Shown piece by piece: positions 19,458 through 28,205 of a DNA stretch of 28,213 nucleotides; position 1 is the first letter of the stretch, and the number at the start of each line of letters is the position of its first letter. The notes beneath the pieces were generated by a model. It ran no database searches and was not told where the DNA came from. It worked only from the letters and a program-made list of their open reading frames with translations. A program made the position numbers and the translations under genes. Source of the DNA: an uncultured Myxococcaceae bacterium (lineage in GTDB: Bacteria > Myxococcota_A > Polyangia > Polyangiales > Ga0077539); NCBI GenBank assembly GCA_964447205.1, contig CAYUSB010000004.1, positions 23,586 to 51,798 of the forward strand, given 5' to 3'.

Positions 19458-20717
19458 CTACAGGGCGGCGCGGTCGAGGTCGAAGAGGGACAGGACGGTT
19501 TTGGTCCCGCGGGCGTCCTTCTTCCAGAGCAGGGCGAGGGTGTCGCCCGCCGCGGAGAGCCCGATGATCCGCGGGGCCCGGTAGGTGCAACACTGGGGGT
19601 CGTCGGCGAGGAGGGTCCGCACGATCTCGGGGCCCGCGTCGCGCCAGAGAAACACGGCGACCCCGTCGGTGATGGCCAGGTCGTCGTGACCGATGCGGGC
19701 GGCCAGGGAGGTCTCCCACAGGAGCTCGTGCTCGAAGCTCCGCATCCCGACCGTCGGGGGCGGAGGCACGCTCTGGCTGTGGGTGTGCCGCGCCGAGCGG
19801 TCGTTGTGGTCGTGGCCGTCGGAGGCGACGCGGGCGATCAGGCCGTCGAGGAAGTCCTGGTCCCAACGGGTGCGGGCCCGGGCCCGGAGAGAGGCGGCCC
19901 GACGCTGCCGGGCGTCGCCCGCCGAGGCGAGGGACACCGCGGGGCCCGGGCCCACCCGAAACCCGTACCGCGGGGCCCCGGCCACCCACATCCCCCGAGG
20001 GGCGGGCGCGAGGGCCAACCCGAAGGGCCAGCGGAGGTGCCCGGACGGAGCCTCGGCCCCTGGCTCGAACCACGACAGGCCGGCGATGAGGCCCGGGTCG
20101 GCGCAGAGCACGTAGAGGGTCCCGTCGTCGCCGAAGGCGTGGGCGTACTGGTCGACGTCGAGGGGCTCGAACCACTGCTCGCGTACGGCCCCGTCGGGCA
20201 GGGCGATGTGCATGAGGGCGCTGCGCTCACCGCTGCCGCAGACCCGCACCACGAGGCCCGACCCGTCCCGGGAGAAGGCCAGGGTCGAGGCCGCCCGCGC
20301 CTGAGCGTTGCGGGTCACGGCCCCGTACTCCGACACCCTGGCCCGGAGGGGGTCGGTCGTGAGGTCGCGGGGGCCGACGTGGATGACCCCGCGGCGCTCC
20401 TGCTCCTCCCACACGAGCTCGGCCACGGCCCACTGTTGGCCGTCCGCCGACCAGGTGACGTGTTGCAGGGGCCTGCGATCGGCGGCGGGCATGGCCACCG
20501 CGGTGGCCCCGTCAGCGAGGGACACGAAGTCGAGCTGTTGTCGGCTCCAGGGTCCGTGCAGGATGGCCGCCGTGGCCCCGTCGGGGGCGAGGGCCACCTC
20601 CCCGCCGTGGGCGATGTCGAGGTTGCTCCGCAGCCGGGCCGCGGGATGCAGGTCGAAGGGGACCTTGGGGCGGGGGGCCATCGGGCCGGGAGGGTACCAT
20701 GGCCCCCGTGGGCGCAT
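19458..20717 (-). CDS. Cytoplasmic beta-propeller-like hypothetical protein, start uncertain
   Basis: Only the C-terminal ~410 codons of the 579-aa track ORF are protein-like (LAFSRDGSGLVVRV, TLYVLCADPG blade-like segments, a DGHDHND His/Asp cluster). The N-terminal part is antisense junk over the next gene. Candidate starts are 20678, 20717 and 20760. The stop lies 14 nt after the convergent PLD stop. Confidence 0.55.
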   Translation of the reverse strand: MRPRGPWYPPGPMAPRPKVPFDLHPAARLRSNLDIAHGGEVALAPDGATAAILHGPWSRQQLDFVSLADGATAVAMPAADRRPLQHVTWSADGQQWAVAELVWEEQERRGVIHVGPRDLTTDPLRARVSEYGAVTRNAQARAASTLAFSRDGSGLVVRVCGSGERSALMHIALPDGAVREQWFEPLDVDQYAHAFGDDGTLYVLCADPGLIAGLSWFEPGAEAPSGHLRWPFGLALAPAPRGMWVAGAPRYGFRVGPGPAVSLASAGDARQRRAASLRARARTRWDQDFLDGLIARVASDGHDHNDRSARHTHSQSVPPPPTVGMRSFEHELLWETSLAARIGHDDLAITDGVAVFLWRDAGPEIVRTLLADDPQCCTYRAPRIIGLSAAGDTLALLWKKDARGTKTVLSLFDLDRAAL

Positions 20718-20828
20718 TGGCAGGTCGTCCGAAGTCCTTGGCGCCCCGCCCGAAGCGCCCATGACCCCGGCGGGGCTATCTCTCTCCCTGCCCACGACGG
20801 GCCCACACCGCACGAGAGATCCCCGACC

Positions 20829-21389
20829 ATGCGCACCCGCTTCGCCATCGCCGCCCGCACCCTGATCGTCAGCCTCGCCGCCCTGTCCTTCCAGGGATGC
20901 GCCCTCAGCCCCGACGAGGCCCTCGACTTCGGCGACGAGACCGTCGCACAGTCGGTGGCCTCCCGGCGTGAGCCCGGCCTCGACGTCACCGTACGCACCA
21001 CCATGGTCCCCACCGGAATCCCCACCTACGGGTACAACCCCCAAAGCCCCGTGATCACGGTGCAGCTCCGGGTGACCGACAGCACCCTGCGGCAGCGTCA
21101 CCCGCGCTTCGATGGGTTCGAGCGGCCCTTCGCCCTCGTGCCGGGGGCGGCGGGAGGGGGCGTGAGGTGGGTGAGGGTTCCGTTGGTGTTTCGGCACACC
21201 ACGCGGACGGGGTACTACGGCCAGACCCCGGTGGACGTGTACGAGCTCGGCCCGAGCCGCCTCGCCGACCTCGCCGACCTCGACAGGGTCGAGTCCCTCG
21301 GGGTGGCCGTCGGCCTCGACACCAACATCGGCACCCTCTGGGCCCAGGACCCGGGACAGAACTACCGCCCCGTTCCGCTCCCCCGCTGA
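20829..21389 (+). CDS. Hypothetical lipoprotein
   Basis: The ATG at 20829 gives MRTRFAIAARTLIVSLAALSFQGC, a signal peptide with Cys at the cleavage region. The product is 186 aa. Its stop TGA overlaps the next ATG (ATGA at 21387-21391). Confidence 0.55.
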   Translation: MRTRFAIAARTLIVSLAALSFQGCALSPDEALDFGDETVAQSVASRREPGLDVTVRTTMVPTGIPTYGYNPQSPVITVQLRVTDSTLRQRHPRFDGFERPFALVPGAAGGGVRWVRVPLVFRHTTRTGYYGQTPVDVYELGPSRLADLADLDRVESLGVAVGLDTNIGTLWAQDPGQNYRPVPLPR

Positions 21390-22174
21390 TGCTCGACGTC
21401 GACGCCGTCCCTGTCTCCGCCTTCGGTCTGGCCGACGACCTGGAGCCCTTCCACTCGGACTGGCACCAGCACCGCCGCCACCAGATCCTGTACGCCTCGG
21501 GCGGCGTCATTGAGCTCCGGGTGGGCGATCGCCGCTGGCTCCTGCCGCCGCAGAAGGCCGCGTGGATCACGGCCGACGTCCTGCACACGGCCTCGTCGCG
21601 TACGGGAGCCCTCCTGCGTACGGTGTACCTCGACCCCGCCCTGGTGACCCGCGGCCCCACGTGGCAGTGCCGGGTGTTCGCGGTGACCCCCCTGGCCCGC
21701 GAAATGCTGCTCGGGGCCATGCGTTGGGGCCCGGAGGGGGCCCGCGACGAGCCCCTGGCCACCGCGTATTTTACCGCCCTCGGGGGCCTCGCCCGGGAGT
21801 GGGCCGAGGACGACCTCGGGCTGCACCTGCCCGTGTCGCGCACCCCCGAGCTGGAGCGGGCCATGCAATGGGCCCTCGACCACCTCGACGAGCCCATCTC
21901 CCTGGAGGGAGCGGCCCGGGCGGCCCGGTCGAGCGTTCGGACATTGGCCCGGCGCTTCGAGGAGGAGGCCCAGACCACCTGGCGGGCGTATGTTCAGACG
22001 GCCCGGATGATCCGGGCGATGGAGCGCCTGGGCGAGCCCGACACCCGCGTAACCGACGTGGCCTTCTCGGTAGGGTTTCGCAGCCATGGGGCCTTCAGCG
22101 AGGCCTTCCGGGCGTTTGTGGGCGAGACCCCGACGGCGTACCGCACCCGGGCTCTCGCGCGCCGCTCCGGGTGA
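21389..22174 (+). CDS. AraC-family transcriptional regulator with N-terminal cupin sensor domain
   Basis: HSDWHQHRRHQILYASGGVIELRVGDRRW cupin segment plus a C-terminal double HTH (VRTLARRFEEEAQTTWRAYVQTARMIRAMERL...VAFSVGFRSHGAFSEAFRAFVGETP). The start is moved to the ATG at 21389. The upstream part of track ORF 21167 is Arg-rich. Confidence 0.85.
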   Translation: MLDVDAVPVSAFGLADDLEPFHSDWHQHRRHQILYASGGVIELRVGDRRWLLPPQKAAWITADVLHTASSRTGALLRTVYLDPALVTRGPTWQCRVFAVTPLAREMLLGAMRWGPEGARDEPLATAYFTALGGLAREWAEDDLGLHLPVSRTPELERAMQWALDHLDEPISLEGAARAARSSVRTLARRFEEEAQTTWRAYVQTARMIRAMERLGEPDTRVTDVAFSVGFRSHGAFSEAFRAFVGETPTAYRTRALARRSG

Positions 22175-22261
22175 AGGCGCCTCCCCCGTCCCCCGACGGG
22201 CAGAACGGTCTGGGGCCTTCTGGACGCCCCGCCCCCCCCCCGGGTAGACGCTGCCTCCGCA

Positions 22262-22538
22262 ATGCAACGAACCCTCCTCTGCGCGGCGGTCCCGGTCCTG
22301 GCCCTCTGCTTCGCCGCCTGCGGCGGCTCGGCCAATTTCGCCCAGTCTCTCAACGCCCTCCTGGTCCCCGGGAGCAGCCCCGAGCCGATGGCCGACGCGC
22401 CCCCCCACAGGCTACGCGGTCCCTCCGCCCGTGACGGCCTCGCCCGCAGGCTACAGCGCGCCCCCGCCCGTGAACGATCCCGGGTTCGAGGCGGAGGCCC
22501 CTCCGCCCGTGGTGAACCCGGGGTCACGCGGTCGTTAG
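22262..22538 (+). CDS. Small Pro-rich lipoprotein interrupted by a frameshift at a C7 homopolymer
   Basis: MQRTLLCAAVPVLALCFAACGGS has lipobox FAAC. After ~45 codons the frame turns Arg-rich, while the +1 frame reads PPTGYAVPPPVTASPAGYSAPPPVNDPGFEAEAPPPVVNP to TAG at 22536-22538. The switch point is the ccccccc run at 22392-22398. Confidence 0.4.
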
Positions 22539-22870
22539 GGGGTCGGTGTCGTCGGAGCCGCGGCAGGGGTCGGGGTCGGGGCAGGGGTCGGGGTGGGAGC
22601 CGCTGCAGGGGCGTCGGCGACGGCTGCAGCTCCGCCGTCTCGCAGGGCCACATTGGGGGGCGGGCCCCCGTACACCGCGGCCACGCCTCCGTGTTGGACG
22701 CGCTCGCACCCGGCGCCGCCGAGGGCCCCGCCGAGGGCCAAGGCTGCGAGTGCTGCTGTGGCGCCCCGAGAGGCCGCAGGACGAGCCGTGTCGGCCTGAC
22801 AGAAGGGACACACGGGATGCGGCCGGATGTGCCGCGCACACCGGGAGCAAGGGGTGAGGGCGTCGCGCAT
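22535..22870 (-). CDS. Small zinc-ribbon / TM / Pro-Thr-tail protein (anti-sigma-factor-like topology)
   Basis: From the ATG at 22870 the product reads MRDALTPCSRCARHIRPHPVCPFCQ, a CxxC-x9-CxxC zinc ribbon. It is followed by a hydrophobic segment ATAALAALALGGALGGAG and a PT-rich tail (APAAAPTPTPAPTPTPAAAPTTPTP). It is the last gene of the minus-strand operon, and its stop overlaps the convergent stop of the preceding + gene. Confidence 0.5.
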   Translation of the reverse strand: MRDALTPCSRCARHIRPHPVCPFCQADTARPAASRGATAALAALALGGALGGAGCERVQHGGVAAVYGGPPPNVALRDGGAAAVADAPAAAPTPTPAPTPTPAAAPTTPTP

Positions 22871-22925
22871 CCAGGGACGGTACAACACCACCGCGGACGG
22901 CTGAAAGAGGCTCCGGGGCCGGGAC

Positions 22926-23378
22926 CTATCCCTCGGGCCGAAACTCCATCGGGACGCTGTACTCCGCCCCGCTCATCACGCCCTCCAGGCGCAGGCCCGT
23001 GAGGCGCCGCTCCAGGCAGCGGAGAAAACTCTCCGCCCCGTCGATGCCCGAGGCGTGTCCCTCCACCACCCGCCCCCCTGGGCCCACCTGGATGCGCAGG
23101 GTGACCGTGCCCTGGAGGTTGGGGTGCTGGCGCCGGGCGACCGTGTAGCAGGTCAGGAAGCCCTCGCGGCGGGCCTCCAGGGCGCGCTGGAGGGGGTCGA
23201 GGGGACTCGAGGCCTCGGGCCGCTCCTCGGGGCTCTCCGCGTCTCCCGCTGGCCGACGCACGGGTCGCTCCTGAAGCTCTGGAGCCGGGCGTTGCGGTCG
23301 GGGTTGTGTCGCACCCCCTGCGCCGATCAGGAGCAGGGCGTACGCCAGAAAGGTGGCGGGCCGTCGCATGGCCCGCAT
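22926..23378 (-). CDS. Small secreted protein with a two-Cys C-terminal domain (TonB-C-like pattern)
   Basis: The ATG at 23378 gives MRAMRRPATFLAYALLLIGAGGATQP (signal peptide), with GAAGGG 6-11 nt upstream. The C-terminal ~75 aa (FLTCYTV..GTVTLRIQVGPGGRVVEGHASG..FLRCLERRL) is similar to the periplasmic tail of the pseudokinase. The start lies 1 nt after the SctJ-like stop. Confidence 0.55.
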   Translation of the reverse strand: MRAMRRPATFLAYALLLIGAGGATQPRPQRPAPELQERPVRRPAGDAESPEERPEASSPLDPLQRALEARREGFLTCYTVARRQHPNLQGTVTLRIQVGPGGRVVEGHASGIDGAESFLRCLERRLTGLRLEGVMSGAEYSVPMEFRPEG

Positions 23379-23379
23379 C

Positions 23380-24129
23380 CTAGCCCTTCGGGCGTGTGGG
23401 CGCAGCCCCACGGGACCTGCGTCGTCGCGACCCCAGGAGGATGGCCCCCGACCCGAGGGCTACGTTGGTCGCGAGGAGCAGGGTGAGGGCGCGGCGGAGG
23501 GGTTCGGCCGAGGCGGGGGCGACGGCGAAGGGGCCCACGTGCAGGAGGCCCGGGGGCGGCGGGGACGGGGCCGCGGTGGTGACGAAGAGCGAGACGTGCT
23601 CGGGGGACAGCCCGCGCACCCCGTCGGCCACGAGGCGACGTACGGCCTCGCGGTCGAGGGGGGAGCCGGGGCGGAGGTGCAGGGCCACCGCGGCCCGCCG
23701 TGGGGGCAGGGCGAGGGGTTCGTCGAGCCGGGGCAGGGGCTCTTCGGGCAGGTGAACCCGGGCCCACAGCACCCCGTTCAGCCGTCGCAGGGTCAGGGCC
23801 AGCTCGTCGCCGAGGGCGCGATCGAGCCGGGCCCTCTCCGCGGCGAGGCCTTCCAACACGGGCCGGGCAGGCGTCTGGGCGAACCCCCCCGGGCTCGGTC
23901 CCTCTGCGCGCAGGGTCTCGACGGCCCGTGCCACCTCCTCGGGGCCGACGGCCACCCGCCACCCGACGCCCCGCGATGAAGCCGCCCGGGAGGCCGAAAC
24001 CCCCGCGGCCTCGAGCCGACCGACTACCCGCAGGCTCTCGGCCTCGTCCACCCCGTCGAGCACGGCCACCTCGCCGCAGCCCGCCCCGAGGGCCCCGAGG
24101 GTCGCGAGGGCTAGAACCCGAAGCCCCAC
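23380..24129 (-). CDS. SctJ/YscJ-FliF family-like ring lipoprotein (orphan)
   Basis: The GTG at 24129 gives (M)GLRVLALATLGALGAGC (lipobox LGAGC). The segment LDGVDEAESLRVVGRLEAAGVSAS...GVGWRVAVGPEEVARAVETLRAEGPSPGGF matches the YscJ_FliF N-terminal domain pattern (LsE.EAn.i...L...gI.a.k....gGw.l.Vpe.d.arA.elLr..GlPr.gf). A second domain and a C-terminal TM (LTLLLATNVALGSGAILLG) with a basic tail follow. The 249-aa size is typical of SctJ. There is no ATG, so a GTG start is assumed. The start lies inside the 3' end of the upstream kinase gene. Confidence 0.55.
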   Translation of the reverse strand: MGLRVLALATLGALGAGCGEVAVLDGVDEAESLRVVGRLEAAGVSASRAASSRGVGWRVAVGPEEVARAVETLRAEGPSPGGFAQTPARPVLEGLAAERARLDRALGDELALTLRRLNGVLWARVHLPEEPLPRLDEPLALPPRRAAVALHLRPGSPLDREAVRRLVADGVRGLSPEHVSLFVTTAAPSPPPPGLLHVGPFAVAPASAEPLRRALTLLLATNVALGSGAILLGSRRRRSRGAAPTRPKG

Positions 24130-25979
24130 GACAGGCCGATGCGGGGCCCCCCGAAGGCCCGCCACGAGAGCGAGCGCACGACGTTGCTCACGCACGATTT
24201 CACCCCCGGCGACCCGTTGGCCACGGTGACCCCCATGGCCCGCCCCGTCCCCGCGATGGCGATGCGCACCTGAACCTGCCGGGCGCTCCCGTCGCCGAGG
24301 CACCCGGCGAAGCGCGACAGGCTGGCGTTGAGGGGGCGGGTGATCTCGGCGTCGTTGAGGGTCCCGCCTCCGGGGCCGCTCCCGCCGAAGTTGTAGTCCA
24401 CGGCCTGGGCCATGGCGGCCTCGTAACTCATGCCCCCGTGGCCGCCTCCGCCGCCTCCGCCGCCGCCCGCGCGCCGGGCCGAGGGGGGAGGCGGGGGCAG
24501 GAGGATGATGCTGGAGGTCTGCACCCGCAGCTCGCCCCGTTGGATGAGCTGGTCGATCTCCGCGGCGCTCCGCTGGCGTTTGGCCCCGGGGCCGACGGTG
24601 ATCCAGTACACCCCCCCGAGGAGCCCGAGAGACAGGACGCTGGCCACGGCCACGATGAGCTTCGACCGGCTGGCCACCCCGTGCTCGGCCAGGGCCTCCT
24701 CGGTGGCGGCCCGGCGCTGGGATCCCTGGCGCTGCTCGCGGGCGGTCTCGACAAACTCGCGGTACTGGGGCCAGTCGAGGAGCTTGCGTTTGTCGGCCGT
24801 GTCCATGTTGGACACGAGGTCGGTCTCGGCCACCTCGCCCCGCACGATGGCCGCGATGAGCTCGCGGGCCGTGAGGGGGCCGTGGTCGAGGCCTCCGTGG
24901 GCGTACATCCAGCGGTCGGCGTCGTCGCGGGTGACGGCCCGCAGGAGGGTCCCGAGGTCGGCGTCGGAGGCCCGCGGGGCCACGAGGTCGGGCGAGGAGG
25001 CCGCCCCCATGGGGTCGACGGAGAGGTCGAACTCCACGGGGATCTCGACCCGGGCCGCCCCGGGGGGCATCGGGGGGGCCCCGGCGAGGTCAAACTCGAC
25101 GGGGATCTCCTCGTCGTCACGGACGGGGGAGACGGCGGGGCCCAGAAGGGCCGCGAAGGCCTGGCGGAAGGCTCCGACGGAGGGGAAGCGGTCGACGGCC
25201 TTGGGGGCGAGGCAGTTGTCGAGGATGGCGTCGAATGCGGCGGGCAGGTCGGGGTTGAGCGACGAGGGGGCCACCTCGGGATTGGGGCGGCGCCCCGTGA
25301 CGAGCTCGTGCAGGACCACCCCGAGGGAGTACACGTCGCTCTGGGCGCTCGGCATGGCCCCGTTGCGCACCTCGGGGGCGACGTAGTGGCCCGGGACGGC
25401 GTTGGACACCACCAGGGGGGTGAGGAGCCCGAGCCCGGCCAGGCGCACCCGCTCGCCCTCGATGCGCACGAGGCTCGGGGCCACCCCTCCGTGGGCCATC
25501 GTGCGGTGCACGATCCCGAGGAGGTAGGCCACCCGGTCGACGTAGGGGAAGGCCTCTTCGAGGGTGTAGTAGGCCCCGGCCCGGCGCAGGACCTCGAGGC
25601 GGTCGCTCAGGGCCACCTCGCCGAGGGGCTCGGTGGCCACGCACAGGGCGGAGCCTTCGGGGTGGGGCAGGACGAAGGTGCCGAAGGGGGCCACGAGGTC
25701 GCGGTGGGCGATCGGGGCCGCCGCCCGAACGGCCCGGCGGGTCATCTCGAGCTGGGCGTCGGTGAGGGCCCCGGGGGCCATCGACCACACGGCGATGGGG
25801 CGCCCGGTCTTCTGGTCGGTGGCGTGAAAGATGTCGATGTCGCCGAGGCGTTGGGCGTGGCGGTCGACCTGGAAGCGCCCGCCGATGACGGTCCCGGTCT
25901 GGACAGAGGCCGCGGTGGGCGTCGGGGTGGCGGGCGGAGCGGGAGAGGCCATTGGGGGGGCGCAGGATGGTACCTGCAT
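24111..25979 (-). CDS. Bitopic transmembrane pseudokinase (Ser/Thr-kinase fold, degenerate catalytic motifs) with periplasmic two-Cys domain
   Basis: Only the C-terminal 623 codons of the 1175-aa track ORF are real; the rest is antisense to glyS. The kinase fold is recognisable (IGGRFQV Gly-loop remnant, YVAPEV, SDVYSLGVVLHELVTG). However the VAIK Lys is replaced (IAVWSM), the catalytic loop reads HRTMAHGGVAPS instead of HRDxKxxN, and DFG reads GLG. A duplicated EIPVEFDL motif, a TM helix (LIVAVASVLSLGLLGGVYWITV), a poly-Gly linker and a C-terminal domain with 2 Cys follow. The product ends WGFGF. Confidence 0.75.
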   Translation of the reverse strand: MQVPSCAPPMASPAPPATPTPTAASVQTGTVIGGRFQVDRHAQRLGDIDIFHATDQKTGRPIAVWSMAPGALTDAQLEMTRRAVRAAAPIAHRDLVAPFGTFVLPHPEGSALCVATEPLGEVALSDRLEVLRRAGAYYTLEEAFPYVDRVAYLLGIVHRTMAHGGVAPSLVRIEGERVRLAGLGLLTPLVVSNAVPGHYVAPEVRNGAMPSAQSDVYSLGVVLHELVTGRRPNPEVAPSSLNPDLPAAFDAILDNCLAPKAVDRFPSVGAFRQAFAALLGPAVSPVRDDEEIPVEFDLAGAPPMPPGAARVEIPVEFDLSVDPMGAASSPDLVAPRASDADLGTLLRAVTRDDADRWMYAHGGLDHGPLTARELIAAIVRGEVAETDLVSNMDTADKRKLLDWPQYREFVETAREQRQGSQRRAATEEALAEHGVASRSKLIVAVASVLSLGLLGGVYWITVGPGAKRQRSAAEIDQLIQRGELRVQTSSIILLPPPPPSARRAGGGGGGGGGHGGMSYEAAMAQAVDYNFGGSGPGGGTLNDAEITRPLNASLSRFAGCLGDGSARQVQVRIAIAGTGRAMGVTVANGSPGVKSCVSNVVRSLSWRAFGGPRIGLSWGFGF

Positions 25980-26072
25980 CCGTCGGGGCGCAGCAAGGGT
26001 GCAGCGCGCGGGTGGCTTTACGCGCCGCGGCGGGGCTGCTACCAGTGCCGACCTGCGAGGGATAGAGAGCGA
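25980..26072. promoter_or_regulatory. Divergent intergenic region between the pseudokinase operon and glyS
   Basis: 93-bp gap between divergent start codons (25979 on the minus strand, 26073 on the plus strand). Confidence 0.3.
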
Positions 26073-28205
26073 ATGACATCGACGCTGTTGCTGGAGGTCG
26101 GGTGCGAAGAGCTGCCGACGTCGTTCTTGGAGGATGCGATGGGGCAACTTGGGAAGAGCCTCCCCGAGGAGCTCGATCGGGTGGGGGTGGCCCACGGGGC
26201 GGTGCGGGTCCTCGGGACCCCGCGTCGCGTGGCCGTGGTGGTCGAGGAGGTGGTCGCCGAGATCGCCCCCCGCGAGGAGGAACTCCTCGGCCCCCCGGCT
26301 TCGGCCGCCCTCGGGCCCGACGGCGGCTGGAGCCGCGCGGCCGAAGGGTTCGCCAAGAAGAACGGCCTGTCCATCGACGCCCTGTCCCTGGTCGACACCC
26401 CCAAGGGGCGTTACCTCCGGGCCCTCAAGCGCACCCCGGGGACCTCGGCCATCGCCCTCCTGCCCGCGGCCCTCACCGCCGCCCTGCGTCGGGTGACCTT
26501 CGCCAAGTCGATGCGCTGGGCCCAGCAGGAGACGGCCTTCGGGCGGCCCGTCCAGTGGATCGTGGCCCTCCTCGACGACGCCGTGGTGCCCCTGTCCTTC
26601 GCCGGGGTGGACGCGGGGCGGGCGACGTACGGGCATCGGTTTCTGGCCCCGTCGGCGATCTCGTTGGGGCACGCGAGGGGGTACCCCGAGACCCTGCGGG
26701 CGGCGAAGGTCGAGGTCGACCCCAAGGCCCGTCGTGATTCGGCCCTGGAGGCCCTCCTGGCCGCGGCCGCGACCGAGGGCGGGATCCTGCGGCGCGACGC
26801 CTTCCTGGAGGGCGAGGTGACGGGCCTGGTCGAGTGGCCCGCGGTGGTGGTGGGGCGCTTCGAGGAGAGCTTCCTCGACCTGCCCGACGCCCTCATCGAG
26901 AGCGTGATGCGCGGCCACCAGCGCTACTTCGCCGTCGAGGGGCCGACCCCGCCCGGCGGGTCCGCCCGGCTCCTCCCGCGGTTTCTGACCGTGGTCAACA
27001 CGGCCCTCGACCCCGAGACCATCCGCCGGGGCAACGAGCGCGTGATGCGGGCCCGCCTCAACGACGCGGCCTTCTTCGTGCGCCAGGACCGCAAGCGCCC
27101 ACTGGCCGACCGGGTGTCCGACCTCGACGCCGTGGTCTTCCACGCCCGGATCGGCTCGTACGGCGACAAGGCCCGCCGCCTCGGGGCCCTCACCGCCGCC
27201 CTGGCCGCCGTGGTCGAGGCCACCCGCCCCGGGTTCGCCGCCCCCGACGAGGCCGCCCGGGCCGGGGTCCTCGCCAAGGCCGACCTCGTGACCCTGGCCG
27301 TGGGAGAGTTTCCCGAGCTCCAGGGCGAGATGGGGGGCTACTACGCCCGCCACGACGGCGAGCCCGCGGCCGTCTCCGAGGCCCTCGGGCAGCAGTACCA
27401 GCCCCGCGGGGCCGCCGACGCCGTGGCCCCCTCGGCCCTCGGGGCCCTCCTCGCCGTCGCCGACCGCCTCGACACCCTCGTGGGCTGCTTCGCGGTGGGC
27501 CTGCGCCCCACGGGGGGCGAAGACCCCTTCGGCCTGCGCCGGGCGGCCATCGGGATCCTGCGGACCCTGCTCGACCACCGCCTCCGCCTCGACCTCCGCA
27601 CCGCCGTCAGATGCGCCCTGTCCGCGTATCAAACCCACGGGGCCGACAGCCCCGCAGGCAGGGCCGTGGCCACGGAGGCGTCCCAGGCCGCTCTCACCGC
27701 CGCGGTGGTGGACTTCTGCGCCGAGCGGCTCAAGGGCCTGCTCGACGAGCGCTTCGGCCGCGACCCCGTGGCGGCGTGTATGGCCGCGGGCAAGACCGAC
27801 CCCGTCGATCTGCTTGAGCGGGTCGAGGCCGTCGACGCCTTCTGGGCCACCCCGGCCGCCCAGGACCTGGCCGTGGCCTTCAAGCGCGTCTTCAACATCT
27901 CTCGGGGGGCTCCGGCCGGAGAGGTCTCGGACGCGGTCCGGGGGTGCCTCCTCCTGCCCGCGGAGGTCGAGCTCCTCGCGGCCTACGACACGACCCGGGT
28001 GGGCCTCGGCCCCCTCCTCGCGGCCCGAGACTTTGTCGGGGCCATGGGGCTCATCGCACGCACCCTGCGGGGGCCCGTCGACCGCCTCTTCAACGAGGTG
28101 TTCGTGATGGACAAGGATCCGACCCTGCGCGACGCGCGCCTCCTCCTCCTCGGGCGCCTCGCCGACGCCGTGGGGCAGCTCGCCCGCTTCGACGCCCTGG
28201 AGTAA
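26073..28205 (+). CDS. glyS: Glycyl-tRNA synthetase beta subunit
   Basis: MTSTLLLEVGCEELPTSFL.. aligns from the N-terminus with E. coli GlyS (MSEKTFLVEIGTEELPPKAL). Further conserved blocks are LVEWPAVVVGRFEESFL, GEMGGYYARHDGE, QQYQPRGAAD and DPFGLRRAAIGILR. The start ATG is at 26073, in frame with track ORF 23700, whose upstream part is rejected. Confidence 0.9.
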   Translation: MTSTLLLEVGCEELPTSFLEDAMGQLGKSLPEELDRVGVAHGAVRVLGTPRRVAVVVEEVVAEIAPREEELLGPPASAALGPDGGWSRAAEGFAKKNGLSIDALSLVDTPKGRYLRALKRTPGTSAIALLPAALTAALRRVTFAKSMRWAQQETAFGRPVQWIVALLDDAVVPLSFAGVDAGRATYGHRFLAPSAISLGHARGYPETLRAAKVEVDPKARRDSALEALLAAAATEGGILRRDAFLEGEVTGLVEWPAVVVGRFEESFLDLPDALIESVMRGHQRYFAVEGPTPPGGSARLLPRFLTVVNTALDPETIRRGNERVMRARLNDAAFFVRQDRKRPLADRVSDLDAVVFHARIGSYGDKARRLGALTAALAAVVEATRPGFAAPDEAARAGVLAKADLVTLAVGEFPELQGEMGGYYARHDGEPAAVSEALGQQYQPRGAADAVAPSALGALLAVADRLDTLVGCFAVGLRPTGGEDPFGLRRAAIGILRTLLDHRLRLDLRTAVRCALSAYQTHGADSPAGRAVATEASQAALTAAVVDFCAERLKGLLDERFGRDPVAACMAAGKTDPVDLLERVEAVDAFWATPAAQDLAVAFKRVFNISRGAPAGEVSDAVRGCLLLPAEVELLAAYDTTRVGLGPLLAARDFVGAMGLIARTLRGPVDRLFNEVFVMDKDPTLRDARLLLLGRLADAVGQLARFDALE

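Follow-up and report, generated by a model that had tools for sequence, protein, structure and literature searches.

Gene organization of the locus

The 28,213-nucleotide stretch analysed here (hereafter the window, about 73% GC) comes from contig CAYUSB010000004.1 of an uncultured Myxococcaceae bacterium. Its interval 22926-24480, with features on the minus strand, encodes two segments that carry the same two-cysteine domain, one at the C-terminus of a membrane-anchored pseudokinase (the tail) and one in a small secreted protein. Genes were called from the list of open reading frames (ORFs) and from the frame signal given by the GC content of codon positions (GC3). The interval covers the last ~120 codons of the pseudokinase gene, a complete gene for a SctJ-like lipoprotein and the gene of the small protein. 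The genes and domains (aa, amino acids; TM, transmembrane) are as follows:

24111..25979, minus strand: gene of the bitopic pseudokinase, 622 aa, called from the ORF and the GC3 frame signal; alternative start ATG at 25952
24114..24353, minus strand: two-cysteine tail domain of the pseudokinase, aa 543-622, predicted to be periplasmic; C560 at 24302-24300, C596 at 24194-24192
23380..24129, minus strand: gene of the SctJ/YscJ/FliF-family lipoprotein; likely start GTG at 24129, lipobox LGAGC, C-terminal TM helix, stop codon at 23382-23380
22926..23378, minus strand: gene of the small secreted protein, 150 aa from the ATG at 23378, called from the ORF, the frame signal and the start codon
~22941..23195, minus strand: folded two-cysteine domain of the small protein; cysteine codons at 23150-23148 and 23018-23016

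The GTG start of the SctJ-like gene falls within the final part of the pseudokinase gene, and the ATG of the small protein lies 1 nt past the SctJ-like stop codon. These three genes therefore form one translationally coupled operon. An earlier note on this DNA had proposed a membrane-anchored and a soluble copy of one domain in a single operon; both copies are present, with coupled start and stop codons. The same note had the secreted protein downstream of the pseudokinase, which holds for the operon but not for direct adjacency, as the SctJ-like gene, which it did not mention, lies between the two.

The two segments are homologous at the family level

The two segments had been described as aligning well, and the peptides and the pattern given for them (F-x-x-C ... 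V-x-[LV]-R-I ... C) are found as stated. The domain is actually ~80-85 aa long and not ~65 aa. Pairwise comparison does not bear out the good alignment. A BLASTP comparison between the small protein and the 107-aa tail gave E=1.2 over 37 residues, and Smith-Waterman alignment with two gap settings gave scores of 28 and 35 against 25+/-4.7 and 28+/-5.5 for shuffled sequences (z=0.6-1.2), with 13-25% of the shuffles reaching the observed score. By the yardstick of shuffled controls, which the earlier note had itself proposed, the single pair is thus at chance level, and we rejected close paralogy. These pairwise values are also what would be expected if the resemblance were a chance or compositional pattern of Cys, Gly, Arg and Val between unrelated segments of a 73% GC genome.

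Since no pairwise signal was present, we moved the comparison to profiles. A word-indexed search contributed three relatives of the small protein and nine of the C-terminal half of the pseudokinase, and a scan of the GTDB species genomes yielded 107 relatives of this half, for which 80 loci were fetched; together these gave 81 distinct tails. Using hhalign, nine tails and three small proteins aligned with P=0.0016. With 35 non-redundant tails, the P value was 5.7e-5 over 76 columns (profile-profile P overall 3-6e-5), and the alignment spanned every secondary-structure element with both cysteines in register. A local rerun of hhalign scored 31.5, compared with 10.5+/-2.2 (maximum 19.2) for 300 column shuffles, none of which reached it, and with 15.3 for the reversed alignment. 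The observed score lies ~9.5 standard deviations (SD) above the column shuffles. The homology of both segments is real, at the family level only.

The two copies do not appear to be local duplicates, judging by profile scores: each is nearer to the general family than to the other. For the small protein, these scores are 32 bits for the general family, 25.8 bits for the profile of lipoproteins encoded upstream of the pseudokinase in other genomes (see below) and 14 bits for the tail profile.

Both copies belong to the AgmX/PglI-type domain family

The general family is represented by NCBIfam NF033768 ('myxo_SS_tail', AgmX/PglI C-terminal domain-containing protein), which has a curated cutoff of 40 bits. 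It is the best NCBIfam match of the small protein (E=8.5e-8, 32.2 bits) and the only NCBIfam match of the window tail (E=0.064, 13.3 bits). Among the orthologous tails, 25 of the 35 matched this model at E<0.01 (best 2.6e-10), and in full-length orthologues the match is confined to the last ~90 residues. The weak match of the window tail is a second point that fits a chance resemblance, and the values reached by its orthologues on the same model speak against it.

AgmX and PglI are the gliding proteins GltJ and GltG, respectively (PMC3169522), both bitopic with a periplasmic TonB-C-like head (PMC11135422, PMC11761067). The C-terminus of the GltG model was matched by 16 of the 35 orthologous tails and that of the GltJ model by six; matches of the tail orthologues to NF033760 and NF033761 fall at model positions ~560-670 only, with 12-22 bits. 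The proposed likeness to the TonB-C-like domain of GltG and GltJ is thus borne out, as both segments match the AgmX/PglI model and orthologous tails align with the last ~90 positions of the models for GltG and GltJ.

Other resources gave less. Pfam returned no match for the isolated tail domain, and for the isolated small-protein domain PF03544 at E=0.1 (13.5 bits against a threshold of 24.6). The small protein also fell below the threshold of TIGR01352 (16 bits against 27.1), and a sequence search of PDB with the profile of the C-terminal half returned low-complexity noise only.

An exhaustive HMMER search with the small-protein profile detected 529 clusters at E<=1e-3. We scanned ten of the top matches: eight contain two to six copies of NF033768 (114-363 bits), one is truncated, and one (P0014) is an orthologue of the small protein. 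In 118 of the 149 relatives (P0015-P0162; 289 aligned copies) there are at least two copies of the domain, mostly two to five in tandem, which suggests that the domain usually works in multiples. The 80 related loci are labelled Myxococcota or 'delta proteobacterium', except for one Micrococcales bin and one labelled as Proteobacteria only. Both segments therefore belong to a known and widespread AgmX/PglI-type domain family, and the domain itself is ordinary.

Predicted fold and conserved cysteine pair

AlphaFold2 gave confident models for both segments. For the tail, the pLDDT score (predicted local distance difference test) was 84.8 and the predicted template modelling (pTM) score 0.77, with helices at 26-35, 37-46 and 74-86 and strands at 51-59, 63-69 and 96-104. 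For the small protein, the scores were 89.9 and 0.79, with helices at 6-13, 15-28 and 60-70 and strands at 34-42, 47-54 and 83-90. The order of elements is the same in both models (helix-helix-strand-strand-helix-strand), the first cysteine lying in the second helix, before strand 1, and the second in the helix after strand 2. The top Foldseek matches of the models in PDB are the C-terminal domains (CTDs) of TonB and TolA (1XX3, 1U07, 2GSK, 5LW8 and 1S62), HasB and FusB. Structure prediction, one of the checks that had been suggested, hence points to a common TonB-C-like fold. The idea that the segments are copies of one two-Cys domain is supported at the family level by the profile-profile score, the common NCBIfam model and the common fold. 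Because two independent predictions agree in element order and in PDB neighbours, and because no shuffle reached the profile score, we consider a chance resemblance effectively refuted.

The two cysteines are invariant in all 81 tails, and in the 149 relatives 228 of the 233 copies in which both columns align contain the pair, as the earlier note's conserved pair would lead one to expect. Because they are jointly conserved and the location is periplasmic, the cysteines probably form a stabilising disulfide.

A conserved pseudokinase with a predicted periplasmic head

The pseudokinase consists of a degenerate Ser/Thr-kinase domain (~aa 25-300), a GYF_2-like segment (aa 355-409), a TM helix (aa ~439-464), a linker and the two-Cys domain. 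The linker after the TM helix is rich in Pro and Gly (PPPPPS...G9). The N-terminal domain matches Pkinase and PK_Tyr_Ser-Thr, and its distant orthologues exceed the Pfam threshold. Aligned to a PknB reference sequence, all 78 orthologues lack the catalytic residues: the position of the VAIK Lys is occupied by R, W or Y, that of the HRD Asp by A, T, G, C or S, and the catalytic-loop Asn is never N. Because these residues are missing across all 78 orthologues, the kinase-like protein is a conserved, catalytically dead pseudokinase. The tail is predicted to be periplasmic from its position downstream of a single TM helix that is preceded by cytoplasmic-type domains.

TonB and TolA transducers are anchored by an N-terminal TM helix in which a conserved Ser/His (SHLS) motif provides the coupling to ExbB or TolQ. 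The fold of the tail, the bitopic topology and the Pro-rich segment after the TM helix would all suit a genuine energy transducer of this type working on an ExbBD-, TolQR- or AglRQS-like motor, and GltG, which has the same domain, interacts with AglR (PMC3169522). Against this, the TM helix SKLIVAVASVLSLGLLGGVYWITV contains no His and hence no SHLS-type motif, the TIGR01352 and PF03544 models stay below threshold, and the conserved neighbour of the gene is the SctJ-like lipoprotein and not a motor. Scanning 24 ORFs of the window against Pfam, we found no gene of the MotA, ExbB or TolQ families, no Glt or Agl genes and no Glt tetratricopeptide repeat (TPR) genes, although motors may be encoded elsewhere in the genome. 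We consider an energy transducer very unlikely, and a classical TonB role was rejected on the missing TM His, the missing motor genes in the scanned ORFs and the sub-threshold sequence models.

Pairing of the pseudokinase with a SctJ-like lipoprotein

The SctJ-like lipoprotein matches PF01514 above threshold (5.4e-10, 39.9 bits against 24.4) and TIGR02544 below its cutoff (2e-19). In loci L001-L004, its gene is located downstream of that of the pseudokinase, in the same orientation. Using phmmer with the single sequence, we found a match in 69 of 85 sources, in most cases immediately after the pseudokinase gene (room for it was available in 77 loci). A pair made of a pseudokinase with the order kinase domain, (GYF-like segment), TM helix, linker and TonB-C-like domain and of a SctJ-like lipoprotein is therefore adjacent in most of ~80 Polyangia genomes.

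This two-gene module (23380-25979, minus strand, in the window; L002-L004 and L006-L086 elsewhere) extends across ~80 genomes of Polyangia/Sandaracinaceae, with no other type III secretion genes nearby. Our literature searches found no paper on a module of a pseudokinase and a SctJ-like protein, and searches on pseudokinase, TonB and myxobacteria and on the AgmX/PglI C-terminal domain likewise returned no papers.

In locus L001 (10001-10891), the gene model P0007 is corrupted across the TM region and does not include the kinase half, which tblastn places just upstream in another frame. The defect is likely a frameshift or an assembly error in this metagenome contig.

Distribution of the second copy

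The small protein consists of a Sec signal peptide, a ~45-aa linker rich in Pro, Arg and Glu and one two-Cys TonB-C-like domain. Both cysteines and the signal peptide are retained in its orthologues P0001, P0003 and P0014. A search of 85 loci with a hidden Markov model (HMM) of the small protein detected orthologues in the window and L005 only. P0014 was added by the exhaustive search and is encoded on a 143-kb contig (L086) in the order pseudokinase, SctJ-like lipoprotein, small protein and a homologue of the fourth gene of the window (ORF4, see below). The HMM found no soluble copy in L001-L004 or in the 80 GTDB loci, and no second copy lies within +/-6 kb in L006, the closest GTDB relative (77% identity), or in the rest of its clade. 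A metagenome scan for further loci of the small protein returned only a 1-kb context-free fragment and unrelated family members. The secreted copy is thus limited to a shallow clade formed by the window, L005 and L086. The survey of co-occurrence that the earlier note had recommended turns out against a general pairing, as most of the orthologous operons lack the soluble copy.

Between the window and L086, the pseudokinases are 92% identical, the tail differing at two positions, compared with 60-62% for the SctJ-like lipoprotein, 52-59% for the small protein, 48% for ORF4 and 60% for the next gene. The pseudokinase therefore seems, from these identities, to be under much stronger constraint than its partners.

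In 22 distant loci of the Sandaracinaceae/Polyangiales type, we found a lipoprotein that combines a lipobox and a low-complexity linker with the same type of two-Cys domain and replaces the secreted copy of the window. Its gene is usually located just upstream of the pseudokinase gene and is at times divergent. These loci are:

L043, 4006-4884: two-Cys lipoprotein
L080, 4281-4847: two-Cys lipoprotein
L056, 4031-4693: two-Cys lipoprotein
L033, 4029-4811: two-Cys lipoprotein
L038, 3673-4824: two-Cys lipoprotein
L004, 858-1559: two-Cys lipoprotein
16 further loci: two-Cys lipoprotein

Four of five two-Cys domains from these lipoproteins match NF033768 (E 7e-7 to 0.05). An HMM of the lipoproteins finds, after its own family, the small protein of the window as best match (E=3e-6), followed by the kinase tails. 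A second TonBC-type protein thus recurs near the module in varying form and position, which leaves room for a pairing model without proving it.

The earlier note had suggested homo- or hetero-dimerising modules; in its strict form, such a model takes the two copies for duplicates within the operon whose anchored and soluble heads function as an obligate heterodimer. The translational coupling of the two copies in one operon would fit it, as would the ability of TonB-C-type domains to dimerise (TonB CTD crystal structures such as 1U07), the tandem arrangement in most relatives and the lipoprotein copy beside the pseudokinase gene in the 22 distant loci. It is hard to reconcile with a pairwise similarity at chance level, with a small protein that fits both the general family and the upstream-lipoprotein profile better than the tail profile, and with the lack of a soluble copy in L001-L004 and all 80 GTDB loci, even the closest. 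The near-unchanged tail beside a small protein of 52-59% identity in the window and L086 further argues against a tightly co-evolving heterodimer. On balance, we regard an obligate heterodimer as unlikely.

Neighbouring genes

The operon is followed by a fourth, accessory gene, called as an ORF:

22535..22870, minus strand: ORF4, small zinc-ribbon-like/TM protein, start ATG at 22870

The N-terminus of its product carries a CxxC...CxxC motif resembling a zinc ribbon; the protein also has a hydrophobic segment and a Pro/Ala/Thr tail of low complexity, and profile scans gave no family match. A homologue with 48% identity occupies the same position in L086 (8481-8768), and none is present in L005. 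We rejected ORF4 as part of the two-Cys finding because it lacks the domain and does not occur in L005. In GltJ, ZnR and GYF occur in one chain; in this cluster, separate genes supply a ZnR-like protein and a GYF-like segment. This parallel may be a coincidence.

The gene content between the small-protein gene and the gene at 19458-20762 on the minus strand (20703-22905 in the window) varies among the window, L005 and L086. The interval is empty in L005 and contains only the ORF4 homologue in L086; in the window it contains ORF4, an AraC-family regulator (21167-22174, plus strand) and a lipoprotein (20703-21389, plus strand). The stretch downstream of the small-protein gene is a local insertion/deletion hotspot.

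On the other side, the divergent neighbour of the pseudokinase gene is glyS, encoding the glycyl-tRNA synthetase beta subunit (26000-28205, plus strand), identified by reading of the translation and from the PF02092 label in L086. The same arrangement of the two genes recurs in L006, L007, L008, L010, L022, L027 and L028. The flanks of the window encode tricarboxylic acid cycle enzymes, NDK, GHL10, a PLD-like protein, a WD40 protein and AraC.

Proposed role of the domain

We conclude that the segments are very probably two independently diverged members of the AgmX/PglI-type TonB-C-like family, one forming the head of a scaffold pseudokinase, the other a free periplasmic protein. Family homology, predicted fold, cysteine conservation, sequence-based topology, operon structure and the conserved pair of pseudokinase and SctJ-like lipoprotein support this directly. 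The domain would be a periplasmic protein-docking module of ~85 aa resembling the C-termini of TonB and TolA, with one cysteine in each of its two main helices. The first copy would form the periplasmic head of a bitopic scaffold that holds the dead kinase and the GYF-like adaptor in the cytoplasm and is connected through the TM helix and a flexible Pro/Gly linker. The second would be a Sec-exported single-domain protein from the operon that also encodes the SctJ-like inner-membrane ring lipoprotein. By analogy, the head may provide a docking surface that ties the cytoplasmic pseudokinase/GYF scaffold to a periplasmic partner beside the SctJ-like ring protein, and would not act as a classical TonB driven by proton motive force. 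The free copy, or the lipoprotein copy elsewhere, may bind the same partner or pair with the anchored head.

Several points weigh against this interpretation. Both window copies score under the curated cutoff of NF033768, and the tail, weakly matched itself, is assigned through its orthologues and its predicted fold. The GYF_2 segment before the TM helix is also below threshold (E=0.001-0.006), and the disulfide is predicted from joint cysteine conservation and periplasmic location. No Glt or Agl genes are present among the 24 scanned ORFs, so the functional analogy to GltG and GltJ is inferred only, and the docking function would be carried over from these two.

A broader and more speculative possibility, which we hold to be doubtful, is that the pseudokinase-GYF-TM-TonBC protein and the SctJ-like lipoprotein constitute a scaffold or signalling module of Polyangia that spans the envelope, works without a motor and is so far undescribed. 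It would be completed by an accessory TonBC protein (secreted here, a lipoprotein in Sandaracinaceae-type lineages), with the two-Cys heads pairing or docking on the ring, and would represent a non-motility cousin of GltG/GltJ.

As the domain is already catalogued, our finding on the two segments is mainly one of annotation: two unannotated segments below the NCBI naming cutoff can be labelled TonB-C-like (AgmX/PglI-type). The context is the more useful lead, namely a dead kinase fused through a TM helix to a TonBC domain and mostly paired with a SctJ-like ring lipoprotein in ~80 Polyangia genomes.

Comparison with known systems

The predicted models share their fold with the CTDs of TonB and TolA. 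In contrast to these domains, the window copies carry a conserved cysteine pair and score below threshold on the corresponding sequence models (PF03544 and TIGR01352). Compared with the TonB/TolA transducers, the TM helix of the pseudokinase is far from the N-terminus (aa 439-464) and lacks the SHLS-type His, and no ExbBD or TolQR neighbour was found among the scanned ORFs.

The window copies resemble the NF033768 family in having two cysteines in register and a length of ~85-90 aa, in their periplasmic and usually C-terminal position and in their distribution in Myxococcota. Unlike typical members, they remain below the cutoff; the small protein joins a signal peptide to just one copy instead of the usual two to five in tandem, and the tail is joined to a pseudokinase.

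The layout mirrors that of GltJ and GltG of the Agl-Glt gliding system of Myxococcus xanthus, in which a cytoplasmic adaptor (GYF in GltJ) and a TM helix are likewise connected to a TonB-C head through a long disordered periplasmic linker (PMC11135422, PMC11761067). Because only the head matches in sequence, this likeness is one of layout only. The N-terminus is a pseudokinase in the window, a ZnR domain in GltJ and an FHA domain in GltG; the full-length cutoffs of 650 bits (NF033760) and 450 bits (NF033761) are far from reached; and the conserved neighbour is the SctJ-like lipoprotein, the scanned ORFs being free of glt and agl genes. In the gliding system, the TonB-C heads of GltG and GltJ are predicted by AlphaFold to dock on the periplasmic protein GltD (PMC11761067). 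If the pseudokinase and the SctJ-like lipoprotein do form a trans-envelope scaffold, they would extend the design of GltG and GltJ, with adaptor, TM helix, disordered linker and TonB-C head in one protein, beyond gliding motility.

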